Both the position numbers and the translations under genes were made by a program. DNA of 64,000 bases from Patescibacteria group bacterium (GTDB lineage Bacteria; Patescibacteriota; Minisyncoccia; Phycocordibacterales; UBA9973): contig JAZJXT010000006.1 of the NCBI GenBank assembly GCA_040390725.1, positions 367-64,366 of the forward strand. Direction: 5' to 3'. The stretch's first letter is position 1; each line of letters starts with the position of its first letter. Positions 3,809 through 47,690 of the stretch are shown in pieces. The notes under the pieces were generated by a model that saw only the letters and a list, made by a program, of their open reading frames with translations, searched no databases and was not told the origin of the DNA.

Positions 3809-4504
3809 TTATTGATGATGAGACATGTCTTCACCAAGCTTATTGACGAATCTGCCAGCTGCATCTTTAGCACCCAAGCCAAAAGCAAGAGCACCTCCGA
3901 TAGCAAGCATACCGATAATACCTGTGAAAACTATTTGCATATAAGCAGGAGCTACTCCTAATTGACCTAATGCAATAATGAAAGCAAAAACCCAAATAGC
4001 ATATCTAGCGATAGAAGCTAGCATATTTGCAGAACGCAAGCTCATAGATTTTGCTCCAGCTCCAATTAATTTTGAAACTGCTTCAGCTACAAATGTAGCG
4101 ATAATCAAAATAAATGCAGCTACGATAACTCTAGGCAAGAATCCTAAAACATCTTCTTTCAAGAATACAGAAATATCTCCTAGGCCTACCAAATTTAGAG
4201 AAGGCATAAGGAAAACCAAAATAACAAACCATTTTACAACTTGTCCGATAAAGTAGCCGGAGTCCAAACTCATTCCAGCCTTTTTCATAAACTCACTCAT
4301 ACCAATAGAAGATAAAAGTCTGTCTACTTTTAGAGCGCCGATAACATGCTCAAATGCTTTTGCAACCAAATTACCCAAAATCCAACCTACTACAAAAAAT
4401 ACAATAGCGATAATAAGCTTTGGCGCGAATTGAATAAATCCCCACCACAAATCTTGAAGAGATGCATTAAAAACATCGCCCCATGACATCCAAATATTGT
4501 TCAT
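3809..4504 (-). CDS. multi-pass membrane protein; MscS-related 'conserved TM helix' repeat family (tentative)
   Basis: Repeated amphipathic or TM segments with a glycine-rich C-terminal part. I recall a resemblance to small mechanosensitive-channel-like proteins, but this is not certain. Confidence 0.35.
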   Translation of the reverse strand: MNNIWMSWGDVFNASLQDLWWGFIQFAPKLIIAIVFFVVGWILGNLVAKAFEHVIGALKVDRLLSSIGMSEFMKKAGMSLDSGYFIGQVVKWFVILVFLMPSLNLVGLGDISVFLKEDVLGFLPRVIVAAFILIIATFVAEAVSKLIGAGAKSMSLRSANMLASIARYAIWVFAFIIALGQLGVAPAYMQIVFTGIIGMLAIGGALAFGLGAKDAAGRFVNKLGEDMSHHQ

Positions 4505-4583
4505 AAATTATAAATAAAACTAATTAATAATAAACTTTCTAAGTTCGACCCTATTAAGTTTCTAGTTTCATTATATCAAATTT

Positions 4584-5165
4584 CTAGCTCTTTTTTAAAG
4601 CATGTGTGGATAACTCCTTGGCCTGCAAAACAACCTCATGAGGAAAATCAAGTATATCTCGTATTAGCTTATCATACATATTTAACCTATAAACAAAGTC
4701 TTTCGTATCAAAAATAGCATAAATTATTTCAGTTCCTAGCTCAGCTTCCAGCTTTTTTACGCCTTCTTCTATCTTATTTTTACTTAACTTGTCGCCTACT
4801 ATCAACAAATCCACCCTACTACTCTTGTTTTTGATAAATATACCAGAAACCAAAAAAAGTTTTATTTTACCTATTTTTTTAAAATTATCTAATATTACTT
4901 GCTTGTCTAAATTCTCAGAGCTCAACAAAAGAGTCTCAAATTCAATCTTGTATTTAAAATTAGAATCAAAAATATATTCCTGTCCGTGTTTTTTTATAAA
5001 ACCTGAGGAAATAAGAAGCTTGATTTCCTTGCGGACAGCATCGGCAGTGACTCGGCTTCGTTTTGCAATATCTACACCTTGAAAACCTTTTGTTTTATTC
5101 AATAAAAAAAGCCTCATGATCTTGACCCGAGCCGGACTGCCTAAAATTTTCCCCAATATTTCCAT
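4584..5165 (-). CDS. hypothetical; N-terminal winged-helix-like domain and C-terminal minimal nucleotidyltransferase-like segment (tentative)
   Basis: ORF track; C-terminal SGIFIKNKSSRVDLLIVGD resembles the GS...D.D motif of nucleotidyltransferases. Confidence 0.3.
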   Translation of the reverse strand: MEILGKILGSPARVKIMRLFLLNKTKGFQGVDIAKRSRVTADAVRKEIKLLISSGFIKKHGQEYIFDSNFKYKIEFETLLLSSENLDKQVILDNFKKIGKIKLFLVSGIFIKNKSSRVDLLIVGDKLSKNKIEEGVKKLEAELGTEIIYAIFDTKDFVYRLNMYDKLIRDILDFPHEVVLQAKELSTHALKKS

Positions 5166-5258
5166 AACTACTTTATAAACCTTTTTTACTAAAAAAACAA
5201 GGGCAAAAAGAAAGCCCGGAAAATTATTTATTCAAATAATTTTCCGGGCTAAAAATAA

Positions 5259-5645
5259 TTAACTAACTAATGTTATATCTTTTGAAGTCTTAAAGATAAA
5301 AACTGTCTTAGGGGGAAACTTTTGATCAGTTGCCCCATCAAAAATCTCAACCTCAACATGCTCGAATGTTTTAAACACTCTCACAAACTGACAAGAATAA
5401 TGACCCGGCTTTGTCTTCAGCGTATCAAGCTTGTACTGTGGCTTCATCGCTATGAACAGATTTTTTCTAAACAATTCCGGGGAAAAATTTATTATATCCG
5501 TAATATCTTGTAATTCTTTCGGAGTACAAAAGCAATCCAGTCCGAATGAGCTGGATGTAGCTTTAGAATAAATATCCCCATACATTTTAGCCCTTGGAAG
5601 CCCTAGATCACGCAAGCTTTTAAAAACCAAATTTTCTTTTGTCAT
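5259..5645 (-). CDS. hypothetical protein
   Basis: ORF track only. Confidence 0.3.
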   Translation of the reverse strand: MTKENLVFKSLRDLGLPRAKMYGDIYSKATSSSFGLDCFCTPKELQDITDIINFSPELFRKNLFIAMKPQYKLDTLKTKPGHYSCQFVRVFKTFEHVEVEIFDGATDQKFPPKTVFIFKTSKDITLVS

Positions 5646-5744
5646 AAGACATTATTTTTACTAAAACTCGCCTACTCTTTAAAGGATTTTCGGCTACTCC
5701 TTATTTATTTGTCAAAAAACTTTACCAAGCTCAAAAAAGAACAA

Positions 5745-5825
5745 ACACCAGCTTTTAAAAAGCTGATTCTTGAGTTGTTTTTAAAAACTTTCACAACACA
5801 AAAATCAAATTTCTACTTTATAAAA
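5745..5825. repeat. ~80-bp repeat (R8 copy 1): bidirectional terminator plus conserved spacer, downstream of serC
   Basis: aacaccagctttt-aaaaagctg...ttgagttgttttt...acacaaaaatca.atttcta aligns at ~75% with 10172-10250. Confidence 0.55.
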
Positions 5826-5834
5826 AAATATTCA

Positions 5835-6950
5835 TTATGTCAATACCAGACCTTTTAGGACCCTACAAAACTCTTCTACTTCTTGCCTTGAATGGCTGGG
5901 GAAATTCCCCAGCCTGATTTGTTTTTCTTTATCTTCCCCATAGCCACTAGCCACCAAAAAACCCTTTTCTTTCAAACTTTCTATTATTTTTTTCGACCCA
6001 TTTTTTGTTTCAGCTACTATCACAGTCTCAGAGCGCATTTCTTTATTATTAATTAACGGTTTTAATTCTTTGCATTTTTCTAATGTAGAATATATTAATT
6101 TTGCTTTTACTTTTATCTCACTTTTTAAATTCTCTACTCCTACACTTAAATAATCCTTGCAAACTTCATTTAATAAATACATACCGAAAACATTTGGCGT
6201 TTCTGGAGTTTGATTTTTCTCAGAATATTTTAAAAAACTCGCAAATGAATGATAAGAACCCGTATATTGTTTATTCTTTTTTTCTATCTCCTCCGCTTTT
6301 TTCAAAGCTCGCGGACTGACAAATAGCACGCCGAGCCCCGCCGGCAAGCCGAAGCCTTTTTGTACTGAAAAAAATGCACAATCAACTTTTGAAAAATCAA
6401 CATCGCACACCGGCGCGCTCGACACGATGTCGAGCGCGATTAACTTGTCCGGGAATTTTTCATAAACTTTTTCCAGAAAACTATTAGGTAAAAGTACCCC
6501 ATTAGTAGTTTCATTATGGGTCATACATATTAATTCCGGATCGCAATCACTGGGTATATCCTCCAAAGAAAATGAGCGATCCTCACGAGCTAATATTTCA
6601 GTACTCACTCTGCCTTGATCTTTACTAATTTCAGAAAATTTTTTAGAAAAATATCCATCGACAAAATGCAAAGTATTTTTCTCCGAACAATTCTGCACGA
6701 CACGTTCCATGAATTCTGTCGCGGAACAAGCATAAAAAACATAATATTCATCGGGAATATTCAAAAGTTTTTTTAAGTTACTTGATAAATCCTCATAAAG
6801 TTCCATAAACTTCTCTCCCCTGTGTGATATCGAACCGATATCTTCTCTACCAGCTTGCTCAATAAATTCCCCGAATTTCGGATGAAGATTACTTGGACCA
6901 ACTGTAAAATAATTTAATTTCATAAATTTAAATAATTGTTCTTGTTTCAA
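5835..6950 (-). CDS. serC: phosphoserine aminotransferase (class V aminotransferase)
   Basis: Length and motifs of class-V PLP aminotransferases (FSVQKGFGLPAGLG). Operon context with serA and a serB-containing gene. Confidence 0.7.
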   Translation of the reverse strand: MKQEQLFKFMKLNYFTVGPSNLHPKFGEFIEQAGREDIGSISHRGEKFMELYEDLSSNLKKLLNIPDEYYVFYACSATEFMERVVQNCSEKNTLHFVDGYFSKKFSEISKDQGRVSTEILAREDRSFSLEDIPSDCDPELICMTHNETTNGVLLPNSFLEKVYEKFPDKLIALDIVSSAPVCDVDFSKVDCAFFSVQKGFGLPAGLGVLFVSPRALKKAEEIEKKNKQYTGSYHSFASFLKYSEKNQTPETPNVFGMYLLNEVCKDYLSVGVENLKSEIKVKAKLIYSTLEKCKELKPLINNKEMRSETVIVAETKNGSKKIIESLKEKGFLVASGYGEDKEKQIRLGNFPSHSRQEVEEFCRVLKGLVLT

Positions 6951-12010: not shown

Positions 12011-12033
12011 AATTTATTCTAAATTTTTACTTA

Positions 12034-12103
12034 AAAACAAAAGCACCCCGAGCAAATGCAAGGGATGCTTTTATTATAGTACTTTTGAAAAGTTATTTCA
12101 ATT
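12034..12103 (-). promoter_or_regulatory. R2a: consensus sigma70-like promoter (TTGAAA-17-TATAAT) followed by a leader hairpin and U-tract, upstream of purH
   Basis: The minus strand reads ttgaaataacttttcaaaagtactataat, then agcatcccttgcatttgctcggggtgcttttgttttt, then ATG of purH. Near-identical copy at 13598-13668. Confidence 0.55.
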
Positions 12104-12905
12104 AATTATTATTTGTACTTTCCACTATAGTTTGCTTATCTATATTCCAATGTATAGCTTTATTCTTAAGAATTTTTCGTGCTGATAGATCGTTAATATA
12201 AACGTCTTTCCATAACCGTAAAACGTCATCGTGTTTTTCAACTAAAAATACTAACTTTTTTTCTAATTTAGTTATCACTGTTTTTAAGCCGGAAGGATTT
12301 ACCCTAACAAGGTTAATTACTTCATCCAGAATTTGCCTTGTTTCTTTAAAGTTTTGCGCATTATCTATTTTGCTATTCATAATAAATGCAATCTTAGGAA
12401 TGACTTTATTATTTTCAAATATCTCTATTTCTTGCATAGTCTCTGCGTCCCCTGAATCACCAAACGAAACTCCTGGCTCAAAAAATATATTATTTAAATC
12501 TTCTAATGAATTTGTATTTTTTATATCCTGCTCAAGAAGTTGAAAATATTTATTTACAAAACTTTTAAAAAGAGGGCGATCAGACTGTCTAATTTTTACA
12601 AAATAATGAATATGGAGATTTTTAAAATCAGAAAGTTCTTCGATTGTTGTTTTTGCACTATTTATTTTATTAGTAAATTGAGCAATAAACATCTCTTCTG
12701 CCATCTTAGCTTCAATTGGAGCATTTTTTGTACTATCTCGCTTGTACTCCTCCTCTATTTTTTCAGATTCTTGTTTCTGTTGAAATTCAGTATGCTTAAC
12801 AAGTCCTTCACCAATAGCAAGCCCTGCGAGAACAGCTAAGGCATTAGTAACTAAAGGGTTAGCCATAATTTTCTTTCCTATATTCATTCCTTCTTTTTTT
12901 CCCAT
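12102..12905 (-). CDS. hypothetical protein with an N-terminal TM segment
   Basis: ORF track. Confidence 0.35.
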   Translation of the reverse strand: MGKKEGMNIGKKIMANPLVTNALAVLAGLAIGEGLVKHTEFQQKQESEKIEEEYKRDSTKNAPIEAKMAEEMFIAQFTNKINSAKTTIEELSDFKNLHIHYFVKIRQSDRPLFKSFVNKYFQLLEQDIKNTNSLEDLNNIFFEPGVSFGDSGDAETMQEIEIFENNKVIPKIAFIMNSKIDNAQNFKETRQILDEVINLVRVNPSGLKTVITKLEKKLVFLVEKHDDVLRLWKDVYINDLSARKILKNKAIHWNIDKQTIVESTNNN

Positions 12906-13026
12906 AAATTTATTATAAAGTTAATTAGTAATCCGACTCATATATAGTACTCTCTCTCTCTGCACGTCAAGCAAGTATGATTATCCACAGATTCATTTAC
13001 TTGTACATATCTACTAAATATGGTAT

Positions 13027-13129
13027 CTTATAAATGTGCCTGTGGGCGTAAGCCCCTTATCGGCTAAGGATCTTCCAAAGCTGAAGACAGGTACATAAAA
13101 AAACCCAAGCCAGTGCTTGGTTTTTTTTA
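13027..13129 (+). ncRNA. R3a: candidate ~100-nt structured RNA with GNRA hairpin (gggcGTAAgccc) and its own intrinsic terminator, convergent with the 3' end of 13132-13578
   Basis: ~80% identity to the minus-strand copy at 47497-47593, with different but self-complementary terminator stems (compensatory). Ends in aaacccaagccagtgcttggtttttttt. Confidence 0.5.
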
Positions 13130-13131
13130 TT

Positions 13132-13578
13132 TTAATCTTCGTCTATTCCCTGAGTGTAAAGTCTTTGGTCGTATGGCATAACACTCCAAAACATTATATT
13201 GCCATCTCCGACTTGCTTTAAAATAATTTTTATTTTATGTTTTTTGTTATTTAATATCGCATGAAATCCCCAATACTGAACTTGTTTCATTTTATAAAAA
13301 CCGTCGTTTTGCATTTTACCATATTTTTCAATTTGCATACGATGCTCTTGAAGCGTTCCGCATTTAGGAATTATTTCTAATGCTTTTTTGAGAAGTATAA
13401 ATTTTAATATTTGCTCTTTGAGATTTCTCGGGGTACGATTCGGCTTATACTGAAGATGATTGAAACCATCTGAATTTAAAATTATTTTCGTTTGAAAATA
13501 CGGGCAATGAATTTCTTTTCTAAATTCATAAAGTGCTTTTGCTTTTGCGCGAATGTTTTCAAAATCTTGCATAATCAA
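13132..13578 (-). CDS. hypothetical protein, paralog family X (HCP...NS.GF.HL.Y...GDGNI.F.SV motifs)
   Basis: Clear paralogy with 47042-47455 (shared motifs HCP, IILNSDGFNHLQY/IIFNSKGFYHLRY, VGDGNIMFWSV/IGDGNITFLSV). No known family recognised. Confidence 0.5.
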   Translation of the reverse strand: MIMQDFENIRAKAKALYEFRKEIHCPYFQTKIILNSDGFNHLQYKPNRTPRNLKEQILKFILLKKALEIIPKCGTLQEHRMQIEKYGKMQNDGFYKMKQVQYWGFHAILNNKKHKIKIILKQVGDGNIMFWSVMPYDQRLYTQGIDED

Positions 13579-13597
13579 AAGTATAACACAAAAATTA

Positions 13598-13668
13598 AAA
13601 ACAAAAGCGCCCCGAGCAAATGCAAGGGATGCTTCTATTATAGTACTTTTGAAAAGTTATTTCAATTC
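13598..13668 (-). promoter_or_regulatory. R2b: second copy of the promoter/leader-hairpin module, upstream of paralog X1
   Basis: ttgaaataacttttcaaaagtactataat plus hairpin gcatcccttgcatttgctcggggcgc plus U-run; ~90% identical to 12034-12103. Confidence 0.55.
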
Positions 13669-13710: not shown

Positions 13711-14013
13711 CTATGTGGGCTGTCCAGTATCCTTATCTATCAAATAATCCCCTATCAGATTTCCATTCTTATTAAAAACTTCCATGGAAAAACAAGAAGC
13801 CATTTTTTTACTCATTGAATTCTTAAAAACAACCGTGTTGCCTTCCTTTCCGTCACTTAAACTAACAAATTCATTTAAAATATTCTCGGGATCAAGCTTA
13901 TGAAAAGATACTAATTTTTCTATTGCCTGATCAACTGTTAAAACTTCTCCAATTTTAACAAAATCACTGAACACAGGTGGTTTATCTTTTTTACTACTCT
14001 CCATGGTAACCAT
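13711..14013 (-). CDS. hypothetical protein
   Basis: ORF track. Confidence 0.3.
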   Translation of the reverse strand: MVTMESSKKDKPPVFSDFVKIGEVLTVDQAIEKLVSFHKLDPENILNEFVSLSDGKEGNTVVFKNSMSKKMASCFSMEVFNKNGNLIGDYLIDKDTGQPT

Positions 14014-22373: not shown

Positions 22374-22526
22374 AAATAATTAAATTGGGATCTGCCCTGT
22401 TAATATCACGCTCTTTTTCTTTAACCCTTTAAAAACTAAAGAATTAAAGGAGAAAAGCGGATTAATCAAGACCGTATTCCCTTGCCTGCCATACTAGCAA
22501 ATTAGAAATAAATAGTCAAATATTTG

Positions 22527-22923
22527 TGGAACTGACGAGAATTGAACTCGTGTGCAAAAGGTTGTTGCAGAGAAATCGACATGCTTGGCTCATTTTTTTG
22601 TTTAAATTTTAAAATTCTTAAATGAGCAAAATATTTTAAAATCGAGTTCTAAGTTTTCGTGAAATATGCGAACAAATATTTCCTTATCCCGATAATATTA
22701 TGCCTCGTCTCATATATCGGAAGTCTATGAGGGAGACACCAGTTTGGCTTACGCGAAAGCTGGAGCGAAAGCAAAATCATTCATACCGAAGTATGGAGAA
22801 GCTTTTGCAAACGCCTTAGAAGTCAATTTTGCAATTAACATTTGAGCGAATTTTTTCGAGATTACGCTCATGCTCGGCATGCATCAATAGCAAAAGGCCT
22901 TTTGTCTATGCCTTGCAGTCCCC
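22527..22923 (-). ncRNA. ssrA: tmRNA (SsrA)
   Basis: Minus-strand 5' GGGGACUG pairs with 3' CAGUUCC + A (the acceptor stem has a G3-U wobble, the alanine identity element). T-arm acgag-TTCAATT-ctcgt. Internal tag-like reading frame ...gat ttt gct ttc gct cca gct ttc gcg TAA (..DFAFAPAFA*). Immediately adjacent to smpB. Confidence 0.7.
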
Positions 22924-46812: not shown

Positions 46813-46904
46813 CCTCACCCCCTTAATCCCCTCTCCGGAGTACCAGAGAGGGGAAACCAAATTCAAACACAAAAAAGCACCCATTTCTGAGTGCTTTTTT
46901 GTTT
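46813..46904 (+). repeat. R5 inverted-repeat end (cctcacccc-N5-cccctctcc-loop-gagagggg) plus R4 terminator repeat copy 1
   Basis: Inverted partner at 47617-47637. Direct repeat of aaaccaaat.caaacacaaaaaagcacccatttctgagtgcttttttgttt at 47638-47690. Confidence 0.6.
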
Positions 46905-46974
46905 GCTTGTTGAAAAATTTTCCACAGATATATTGCTTTTATTGTTAAAAAGTGTATAGTAATAATGTACTCGT

Positions 46975-47058
46975 GAACCGTAAGGTTTATTCGGCTAAGG
47001 AATTCCATACGCCGCAAGCGAGTACTACAAAGACGCCGTCGCTATGACGGCTTTTTTG
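46975..47058 (+). ncRNA. R3c: partial, degenerate copy of the R3 element, convergent with the 3' end of paralog X2, with its own terminator (gccgtcgctatgacggctttttt)
   Basis: cCGTAAGgtttaTTCGGCTAAGGAatTCC aligns to the cGTAAGccccTTATCGGCTAAGGAtcTTCC of R3a. Confidence 0.4.
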
Positions 47059-47455
47059 TTTGCTTTTCTTTCTTTTTCCAAACGCTCAAGAATGTAATAT
47101 TTCCATCACCTATCCTGCGCAAAACAACAGAAACAGTGGCTCCACTTTTTCCGGCGATTTCTTTTAATTCCCAAATCTCAAAATATTTACCGAGCGGTTT
47201 TGAATACTGCTGTTTTTTATAATCAAAAATACTTTTTGCGTTTTTAATTACAGGAATCACCAACGGAAGCAACCCCATTTTAAATTGTTGCTCTTTAATA
47301 TTTCTTTGTTTGCCGTGGCTATCATATCTTAAATGATAAAATCCTTTAGAATTAAAAATAATCTCTTCATTTAAAATAGGGCAATGCACTTTGCCAATGG
47401 TTTTATACCAAGCCCCCTTTTCTTTCAAAAATTCTTGAAACGATTGTTTTTCCAC
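47042..47455 (-). CDS. hypothetical protein, paralog family X (second copy)
   Basis: See 13132-13578. Confidence 0.5.
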   Translation of the reverse strand: MEKQSFQEFLKEKGAWYKTIGKVHCPILNEEIIFNSKGFYHLRYDSHGKQRNIKEQQFKMGLLPLVIPVIKNAKSIFDYKKQQYSKPLGKYFEIWELKEIAGKSGATVSVVLRRIGDGNITFLSVWKKKEKQTKKPS

Positions 47456-47496: not shown

Positions 47497-47593
47497 AAAA
47501 AATCCACCTTTCGGTGGGTTCTTTGTTATGCCTGGCTTCAAGCTTAGGAATACCTTAGCTGAACGGGGCTTACGCCCACAGGCACACTTATAA
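47497..47593 (-). ncRNA. R3b: full copy of the R3 structured element, co-directional with and immediately upstream of paralog X2, ending in the terminator cccaccgaaaggtgg + U-run
   Basis: ~80% identity to 13027-13129 including the gggcgtaagcccc hairpin. Confidence 0.5.
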
Positions 47594-47616: not shown

Positions 47617-47690
47617 GGAGAGGGGTCAGGGGTGAGGAAAAACCAAATACAAACACAAAAAAGCACCCATTTCTGAGTGCTTTTTTGTTT
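47617..47690 (+). repeat. R5 inverted-repeat end (ggagaggggtcaggggtgagg) plus R4 terminator repeat copy 2
   Basis: Reverse complement of the first half of 46813-46853; R4 ~95% identical to 46854-46904. Confidence 0.6.

Follow-up and report, generated by a model that had tools for sequence, protein, structure and literature searches.

A stretch of 64,000 nucleotides (hereafter the window) from contig JAZJXT010000006.1 of assembly GCA_040390725.1 carries two loci at which a small structured RNA adjoins a gene for a small basic protein, here termed X. The genome belongs to the Patescibacteria (candidate phyla radiation), a very large bacterial branch, mostly uncultured and with tiny genomes, about whose non-coding RNAs almost nothing is known to our knowledge. 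A preliminary description of this DNA had reported two RNA-like stretches of about 80% identity, each tied to a member of a paralogous gene pair. Both stretches are real (c1 and c2; 80% column identity with flanks included, the start coordinates then given taking in part of the promoter), and a third copy, c3, had been missed (Table 1). Within the 64 kb, a covariance model derived from c1, c2 and c3 matched these three positions only (E = 3e-19 to 5e-18; next best match E = 0.57), with scores of 76.3 bits for c1 (E = 3e-19), 76.5 bits for c2 and 72.1 bits for c3, and a model built from 66 aligned copies recovered the same three. The whole RNA gene is about 95 nt long, including a structured core of 58–59 nt. 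The copies c1 and c3 are convergent to their X genes and c2 is in tandem with X2, a difference in orientation absent from the preliminary description, which had correctly placed c1 convergent to X1. X1 and X2 share 31% identity (E = 3e-20), in agreement with the paralogy proposed for them.

Table 1. Features of the two RNA–X loci; positions refer to the window.
Feature	Position	Strand	Description
RNA copy c1	13036-13094	+	59-nt three-way-junction core (P1, P2 with GUAA loop, P3), convergent to X1
RNA copy c2	47585-47528	-	canonical X1-type 58-nt core, same strand as and upstream of X2 (tandem)
RNA copy c3	46967-47025	+	diverged 59-nt three-way junction, convergent to X2; X2-type cognate RNA
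X1	13132-13572	-	146-aa basic protein, putatively LPD3-like, convergent to c1; ATG at 13572
X2	47042-47455	-	137-aa X1 paralog, GTG start; P0245 100% identical
c1 promoter	13001-13029	+	-35-like TTGTAC, 17-nt spacer, extended -10 TGgTATCTT that stops 6 nt short of the RNA start
c1 A-rich linker and bidirectional intrinsic terminator	13095-13128	+	hairpin 13105-13120, common to X1
c2 linker and bidirectional terminator	47497-47527	-	hairpin 47517-47504
c3 linker and bidirectional terminator	47026-47057	+	hairpin 47035-47051; X2 stop codon in its loop
DnaA box	12981-12989	+	exact consensus TTATCCACA, ~55 nt 5' of the c1 RNA start
DnaA-box-like site	46918-46926	+	TTTTCCACA, one mismatch, ~49 nt 5' of c3
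X1 extended -10	13580-13588	-	TGTTATACT, 7 nt 5' of the X1 ATG
X2 extended -10	47471-47463	-	TGCTATAAT, 7 nt before the X2 GTG
Left 73-nt direct repeat	12031-12103	.	carries the purH promoter and leader with hairpin; brackets orf267, c1 and X1
Right 73-nt direct repeat	13595-13667	.	directly 5' of X1; TTGAAA-17-TATAAT, 11 of 12 matches
Left 57-nt direct repeat	46848-46904	.	contains terminator hairpin; brackets c3, X2 and c2
Right 57-nt direct repeat	47634-47690	.	doubles as terminator of the upstream gene

The three cores have a common fold, in which a P1 stem of 7–10 bp leads to a 4-bp P2 capped by a GUAA (GNRA) loop and to a long P3, a regular helix with one A·A mismatch and a small apical hairpin. 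The GNRA hairpin and outer stem recognized previously are both present, as parts of what is in full a three-way junction. Relative to c1 and c2, c3 has compensatory changes in P1 and P2 (GGGC/GCCC to AACC/GGUU) and it retains UCGGCUAAGGAAUUCC. Fold z-scores were -5.6, -4.9 and -4.1 for c1, c2 and c3, with none of 200 shuffles folding equally well. The fold is supported by covariation across 66 copies (protein-linked or diverse), 63 of them from other loci and three from the window: 97.2% of 1241 cells are paired, both sides of the pair have changed in 11 of the 19 pairs (72 cells), none of 500 shuffles reached the observed values and slid partners paired in just 23–47% of cells. RNAalifold, run independently, predicted the same junction. 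The alignment includes 100 G-U cells, and pairing falls from 97.2% on the assigned strand to 89.7% on the opposite one, an asymmetry which fixes the strand of the RNA. Natural 'mini' copies lacking the tip of P3 occur at three loci (L022, L056 and L211), and a distant RNA type, partner of the protein P0244, has a longer UUCG-capped stem in place of the GNRA-capped P2, so that what stays constant is the junction together with the P3 5' strand, the latter being conserved in sequence (UCRGCUAAGG).

The linkage between RNA and X was assessed in two sets of loci. The protein-seeded set comprised 80 loci from GTDB species genomes, which were scanned with the RNA model, while the RNA-seeded set comprised 120 metagenome loci retrieved through an RNA-only sequence pattern, two of which were chance matches, six of which end too soon and 112 of which were informative. 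RNA adjoined X in all 80 protein-seeded loci (77 convergent, two in tandem with the RNA upstream), with the RNA core ending a median of 39 nt past the X stop codon. Among the RNA-seeded loci, X was found in 97 of the 112 (84 full-length and convergent, three in tandem, 10 partial), the other 15 having no detectable X despite room for one; at several of these the last X codons (…GIEDE and stop) are still visible after the terminator. X is truncated in about 10–20% of RNA-seeded loci, and the RNA beside a truncated or absent X is intact and promoter-bearing. The relationship is therefore asymmetric in the loci examined: the RNA is seen without X, and X never without the RNA. Overall, 161 loci are convergent, and besides c2-X2 the tandem arrangement occurs in five of ~200 others (L024, L042, L083, L112 and L114). 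Since adjacency is kept despite the inverted relative orientation, the shared terminator cannot explain it.

The type of RNA also follows the type of protein. All X1-type proteins are accompanied by c1/c2-type RNA, the X2-type proteins examined (window, L205/L207, L209/L210, L211 and L212/L213) all have a c3-type RNA downstream and convergent, and a third type accompanies the distant member P0244. L211 resembles the window in having a second RNA copy upstream of X. RNA and X thus co-diversify as a cognate pair. The tie between the RNA and the small protein, proposed earlier from two copies, is borne out by these counts, by the covariation and by this tracking of types, and the element is conserved well outside the genome in which it was noticed, in the 80 protein-seeded genomes and in metagenome loci.

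The RNA gene has promoter and terminator signals of its own. An extended -10 precedes each core in the window, its end lying 6 nt upstream of the first paired G; that of c1 was not listed by a simple consensus scan because its -35 is weak. Across ~165 unique loci a sigma-70 promoter (-35 TTGACA or TTGCNT; near-consensus extended -10 TGnTAnaaT) ends 6–7 nt before core nucleotide 1, which, given this spacing, is the predicted transcription start. In the homologous loci the core is followed by the linker AACAAAGA and then by a terminator with a freely varying stem. As described previously, the terminators in the window have differing, self-complementary stems, one per copy, and all three score on both strands. 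A DnaA box (TTATCCACA, at most one mismatch, either orientation) lies at -60 to -45 of 57 of 178 unique RNA promoters (~32%), compared with 25 of 2000 control windows (1.25%), which suggests that DnaA may have a role at the RNA promoters. DnaA signature motifs were found in none of the loci and no dnaA gene lies nearby, nor does the window contain a cluster of DnaA boxes such as would indicate proximity to oriC (24 matches against 18.7 expected).

This RNA is a new structured class, outside every Rfam family and the searchable literature. A scan of the whole window with Rfam 15 at gathering thresholds gave no family for the element, the only matches being the 5' end of 23S rRNA, tmRNA and DUF805b, and scans of both loci at E up to 10 gave terminator-driven sub-threshold matches alone (e.g. 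Leu_leader, 30 bits against a threshold of 50). The sole ARAGORN match in the window was the tmRNA at 22526-22922, the element being neither tRNA nor tmRNA, and literature searches retrieved no described small RNA or RNA antitoxin of Patescibacteria matching it. Signal recognition particle (SRP, 4.5S) RNA was considered because CAGC(U/C)AAGG resembles the 4.5S 3' strand, and was rejected: the pairing topology differs, covariation backs a hairpin at P3 and Rfam gave no SRP match. The GNRA loop sits on a plain 4-bp stem, unlike that of SRP helix 8, and the SRP domain IV motif (…AGG.CC-GNRA-GG.AGCA…) occurs neither in the element nor in 1.19 Mb of related loci. Likewise, by-eye comparison with 5S rRNA, the 58-mer of the 23S GTPase centre, the hammerhead, twister and pistol cores and the T-loop showed differing junction strands, Rfam again being negative.

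The start of X1 matches that of NCBI protein V4439_03760, and P0001 is 100% identical to it. The X2 sequence taken from the window gave nothing when looked up for an exact match, its relatives being obtained by homology search. The closest X1 relatives form 97 clusters, all of them hypothetical proteins of Patescibacteria/Paceibacteria and none with a Pfam domain, and an exhaustive profile search extended the family to 1333 clusters at 50% identity; 140 relatives of the X2 subfamily come from many candidate classes. Family members are ~137–160 aa long and basic (median isoelectric point 9.7; X1, 9.6; X proteins of the window, 9.6–9.9), with invariant polar residues that include S36, H41, R51, Q56, K59 and W103.

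X had been described as belonging to no recognizable family, a view that has to be revised: judging from profile matches and a structural model, it appears to be a distant LPD3-like protein. Pfam LPD3 (PF18798) matched X1 with 17 bits (E = 0.007; model positions 2-113 of 114), below its 27-bit gathering cut-off, and matched four of 24 family members, again sub-threshold (best E = 7e-4), while two relatives in the X2 subfamily have precomputed LPD3 hits, one of them marked 'faint'. An AlphaFold2 model of X1 (24-sequence alignment; pLDDT 88, pTM 0.81) is confident and alpha/beta globular, and its top Foldseek matches in BFVD are phage polyvalent proteins annotated with LPD3 (probability 0.99, TM ~0.5–0.55, E ~0.02–0.03). 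No significant relative was found among solved structures (Foldseek against PDB; PDB sequence profile search), and PADLOC and NCBIfam gave no match to X. LPD3 belongs to a set of 40 domains without known function in the polyvalent proteins of phages and conjugative elements (PMC5512222), and the LPD3 literature gives neither a function nor an RNA partner. The TnpA transposase of IS200/IS605 and RAYT were also considered for X and rejected, since none of 24 members matched Y1_Tnp (PF01797) and the conserved HLQ falls in a predicted helix, not a beta-strand.

The extended -10 upstream of X1 and X2 recurs 6–12 nt before the X start codon at other loci, where -10-like k-mers are enriched 5–8 fold; lying so near the start codon, it predicts leaderless mRNAs for X1, X2 and the X genes of many loci. 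The idea of autoregulation through an RNA-like motif in the X 5' regions was abandoned, the enrichment there being limited to these -10 k-mers.

The surroundings of the cassette are variable. No neighbouring family was found in more than four loci (tblastn with ribosomal and neighbour proteins; all-versus-all clustering of open reading frames, ORFs, over 80 loci), and relatives that are only ~20% diverged (~80% identity) occupy different loci. The window itself has two X genes and three RNAs, and at least two X1-type cassettes lie on different contigs of one metagenome-assembled genome (H52-bin079; L015 and L066). Helix-turn-helix (HTH) regulators and a Gp49/HTH toxin–antitoxin pair are among the neighbours near some cassettes.

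Both cassettes of the window are bracketed by direct repeats. The 73-nt copies around c1 and X1 are 97% identical with a near-consensus promoter inside, and the flanked segment looks like an insertion; the 57-nt copies around c3, X2 and c2 are 95% identical with a 15-bp terminator hairpin. Flanking direct repeats of at least 24 nt were detected at 19 of 126 cassettes as against 13 of 322 pseudo-cassettes (p = 1.4e-4), and a repeat end flush with the cassette at 10 of 126 against three of 322 (p = 3e-4). The repeats, 31–197 nt long, differ from locus to locus and consist of promoter or 5'-coding sequence; conserved element ends were not seen. The smallest inserts, flush on both sides, contain X and the RNA alone (L171, 693 nt; L012, 688 nt), and in repeat-bracketed inserts the DnaA box lies 5–35 nt from the RNA-side boundary. 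Together with the varying neighbours, this enrichment accords with the earlier remark that the pair could be a mobile unit. At L214, two direct-repeat pairs (56 and 63 nt; 4818-4971 and 5680-6172) flank the cassette; on just one of its sides a 108-aa ORF separates them, a layout which looks like a ~490-nt duplication around an insertion followed by deletion.

A canonical RNA with promoter and DnaA-like box was also found at 490-547 of a phage contig (L201; IMG/VR UViG_3300042090_000315), with no X and no obvious terminator; the contig encodes a terminase large subunit at 4155-5768 (E = 3e-85). No X relative was present in 2.9 M viral contigs, a looser RNA half-pattern gave 32 matches there, 31 of them chance matches rejected by the covariance model, and the c3-type pattern gave none.

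We consider that the RNA–X pair is best read, with a probability of about 0.4, as a relocating two-gene conflict module with a logic like that of type III toxin–antitoxin (TA) systems, in which the RNA is the obligatory partner of X and probably its restrainer. What favours a conflict module is the occurrence of the RNA alone and never of X alone, the excess and orphan RNAs, the strong promoters, the decay of X, the relocation, the kinship with LPD3 and the RNA on a phage contig. The RNA gene is an independent unit composed of a sigma-70 promoter, often a DnaA box, the 58–59-nt junction, the A-rich linker and the intrinsic terminator, and forms with X (~140–160 aa) a self-contained cassette of ~690 bp widespread in Patescibacteria. 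The contact with X would most likely be made by the junction and the P3 5' strand (UCRGCUAAGG) of the RNA, which would thereby restrain the activity of X, and the cassette would relocate as a unit between genomic sites, often leaving long duplications of the local target sequence. The physical binding of RNA to X, the harm or activity of X and its restraint by the RNA, the mechanism of relocation, the origin of the flanking duplications and any part played by DnaA are inferences.

Several observations weigh against this proposal. Within the X1 type the RNA scores ~65–76 bits, near a maximum of about 76, at protein identities of 45–80%, and we know of no type III antitoxin RNA that is so much more conserved than its protein. 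Each RNA gene has a single junction unit, and TRF found a tandem array at neither locus. The direct-repeat signal is confined to 8–15% of loci, the phage evidence consists of one contig, and the tracking of protein subfamily by RNA type could reflect an old duplication of the whole cassette. Several cassettes, moreover, lie in or beside ribosomal-protein operons (str, S10/spc/alpha and L20; e.g. S12-S7-[X, RNA]-EF-G).

The extreme conservation of the RNA fits constraint by a conserved cellular partner, so that a housekeeping ribonucleoprotein stays a serious rival, if on balance an unlikely one. The RNA would then be a lineage-specific core RNA of Patescibacteria (linked, for instance, to translation or replication) and X its dedicated binding, maturation or chaperone protein, and their adjacency would be a sign of shared function instead of conflict, much as smpB adjoins ssrA or rsr the Y RNA gene. 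Such a role would suit an RNA conserved over many candidate families while X falls to 45% identity, the near-consensus promoters with their positioned DnaA box, the ribosomal-protein operons, the persistence of the RNA beside truncated X and the basic character of X. It sits badly with a genomic position that is not conserved even among close relatives, with the frequent truncation of X and the several diverged cassettes that one genome can have, with the size and fast divergence of the X family (the 1333 clusters given above), and with its kinship to a domain of phage and plasmid polyvalent proteins and the enriched flanking repeats.

Alternatively, the ~690-bp cassette would move itself, X and/or the RNA being the mobility machinery (the RNA as guide or scaffold, or together with the DnaA box as a replication or priming function) and insertion making the long target duplications. 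The bracketing of both window cassettes by locus-specific repeats, the flush inserts of X and RNA alone, the varying insertion sites and the closeness of the DnaA box to the RNA-side boundary all point that way. We nevertheless think it improbable, as X has no recombinase, transposase or nuclease signature that we could find, terminal inverted repeats or conserved ends were not found across loci, at least 85% of cassettes have no detectable flanking repeat and host recombination could make those that exist. In addition, repeats of such varied length do not suit a staggered cut of defined size (the L214 duplication appears to span ~490 nt) and multi-copy genomes are few. In a bolder form, which we hold to be slightly more doubtful still, the cassette would be a minimal transposase-less mobile element whose RNA, X and edge DnaA site direct their own insertion or replication, leaving long target duplications.

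It is similarly improbable that the two genes are independent neighbours, the RNA being a trans-acting small RNA, possibly DnaA-regulated, with X next to it through the shared terminator, genome compaction or hitch-hiking. The promoters are indeed separate, the terminator is the sole physical overlap and the RNA occurs without X, the phage contig included; yet adjacency held in 80 of 80 loci while all other neighbours change, it outlasts inversion of the orientation, and the RNA type tracks the protein subfamily. Adjacency through every such rearrangement makes mere hitch-hiking unlikely.

A cis-antisense mechanism, one of the possibilities put forward in the preliminary description, would have the RNA and the convergent X mRNA pair at their 3' ends, the stability or translation of the mRNA being controlled in this way, as in bsrG/SR4 and txpA/RatA. 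It is not supported and appears very improbable. About 95% of loci are convergent and the c3 terminator overlaps the last X2 codons, but the convergent overlap is the shared terminator alone, complementarity is confined to its 30–40 nt, the covarying junction core lies outside it, and there is no overlap in the six tandem cases (c2-X2 and the five loci listed above); X is, besides, a soluble basic protein of 146 aa and not a small hydrophobic peptide. The existence of both orientations rules out cis-antisense control, and equally a cis-regulatory leader, as the general mechanism. Least probable of all is a riboswitch or leader in which the junction is an aptamer that governs its own terminator; in tandem loci it would thereby set the read-through into X, and in convergent loci the transcription antisense to X. 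The compact junction with a terminator directly after it and the position of c2 upstream of X2 on the same strand would suit it, but more than 90% of loci have no same-strand downstream gene, the 3' strand of P1 has no complementarity to the highly variable terminators and hence no antiterminator can form, the regulatory logic would be opposite in the two orientations and no Rfam riboswitch matches.

Other features of the cassette surroundings and of the window were recorded. ORFs of ~160–250 aa beside the RNA at L116 (1693-2421, -), L181 (4647-5396, -) and L101 (8526-9008, +) are NYN/LabA-like by eye only, and other cassette-neighbour ORFs are TIR-like, also by eye only; at L116 and L181 just a C-terminal remnant of X remains beside the NYN/LabA-like ORF, which suggests that X has been replaced. 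In the window, orf267 (12102-12905, -) shares the repeat-bracketed segment with c1 and X1, an arrangement also seen in L218, and orf100 (13711-14013, -) is located between X1 and rplL; Pfam matched neither of them. G/C-rich hairpin repeats (CCCCTCTC…GAGAGGGG, GGGGTGAGG and CTCCTCAAGAGGAG) are scattered through this AT-rich genome (43616-43717, 52536-52659, 40966-40996, 46806-46848, 47603-47640 and 57005-57054), two of them abutting the direct repeats that bracket the X2 cassette; these hairpins may be elements resembling repetitive extragenic palindromes or miniature inverted-repeat transposable elements (REP/MITE-like), or another RNA family. Further direct-repeat pairs of 51–62 nt, 78–83% identical and 0.7–1.5 kb apart (17418-17476/18626-18684, 1060-1121/2559-2620 and 28022-28072/28752-28802), could be repeated promoter or terminator regions, or could bracket insertions like the X cassettes. 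The known RNAs in the window are a DUF805b motif (5669-5702, -; 39.5 bits, above its gathering score), the tmRNA gene (22524-22922, -; 110 bits with Rfam, ARAGORN tag peptide AKLTSKAFAKASPYFGMNDFAFAPAFA, then stop) and the 5' end of a 23S rRNA gene that runs off the left edge (1-183, -).

With an RNA partner, LPD3-like proteins gain their first concrete functional lead, and a 58-nt RNA with a 146-aa protein is a compact and experimentally tractable pair, to which the positioned DnaA box and the predicted leaderless X mRNAs add further testable regulatory features. If the TA-like reading is true, the cassette represents a new RNA-antitoxin architecture; if it moves itself, it is a new kind of element, and in the transposase-less form its RNA-dependent mobility would be unrelated to the mechanisms of OMEGA systems, IS110 bridge RNAs or group II introns.

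Among known systems, the TnpB and IscB omega-RNA elements and the IS110 bridge-RNA elements are likewise compact, pair one protein with one non-coding RNA at the edge and have variable insertion sites. X, however, is ~150 aa and has no RuvC, HNH or DEDD signature, and the RNA usually lies on the opposite strand with its own promoter, no conserved element ends were found and the flanking duplications are long and variable. LPD3 itself is a domain of giant virion-delivered proteins, whereas X is a stand-alone chromosomal protein. In smpB-ssrA and rsr-Y RNA, too, a gene for an RNA-binding protein of ~150 aa adjoins its structured RNA, and that RNA is highly conserved and has its own promoter and terminator, a likeness we draw by analogy; unlike these pairs, both the RNA and the protein described here fall outside the families concerned (Rfam, ARAGORN, Pfam, NCBIfam) and the cassette is positionally unstable, multi-copy and often degraded. 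The type I TA systems bsrG/SR4 and txpA/RatA of Bacillus subtilis share the convergent RNA and the overlap of 3' ends at a shared terminator, but type I toxins are hydrophobic peptides of less than 60 aa, whereas X is soluble, basic and 137–160 aa long, and type I systems need extended antisense complementarity, whereas here just the terminator is shared, the core is clear of X and tandem loci exist.

The type III TA systems ToxIN, CptIN and TenpIN differ from the cassette in that their antitoxin is a tandem array of 34–36-nt repeats rather than a single 58-nt junction, in that their RNA lies upstream on the same strand, whereas ~95% of the loci here are convergent, and in their toxins, X being outside the ToxN/AbiQ, CptN and TenpN endoribonuclease folds and families. 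In common with the cassette they are modules of a structured small RNA gene and a protein gene that co-diversify as cognates, with strong expression of the RNA from its own signals and, as in c2-X2 and the other tandem loci, a terminator between the RNA and the protein gene. They are also accessory, relocating loci in which the RNA may be orphan and the protein is never alone, and the single phage contig with the RNA alone recalls the pseudo-ToxI that phages reportedly encode. The cassette resembles type III in its logic without being a member of it.

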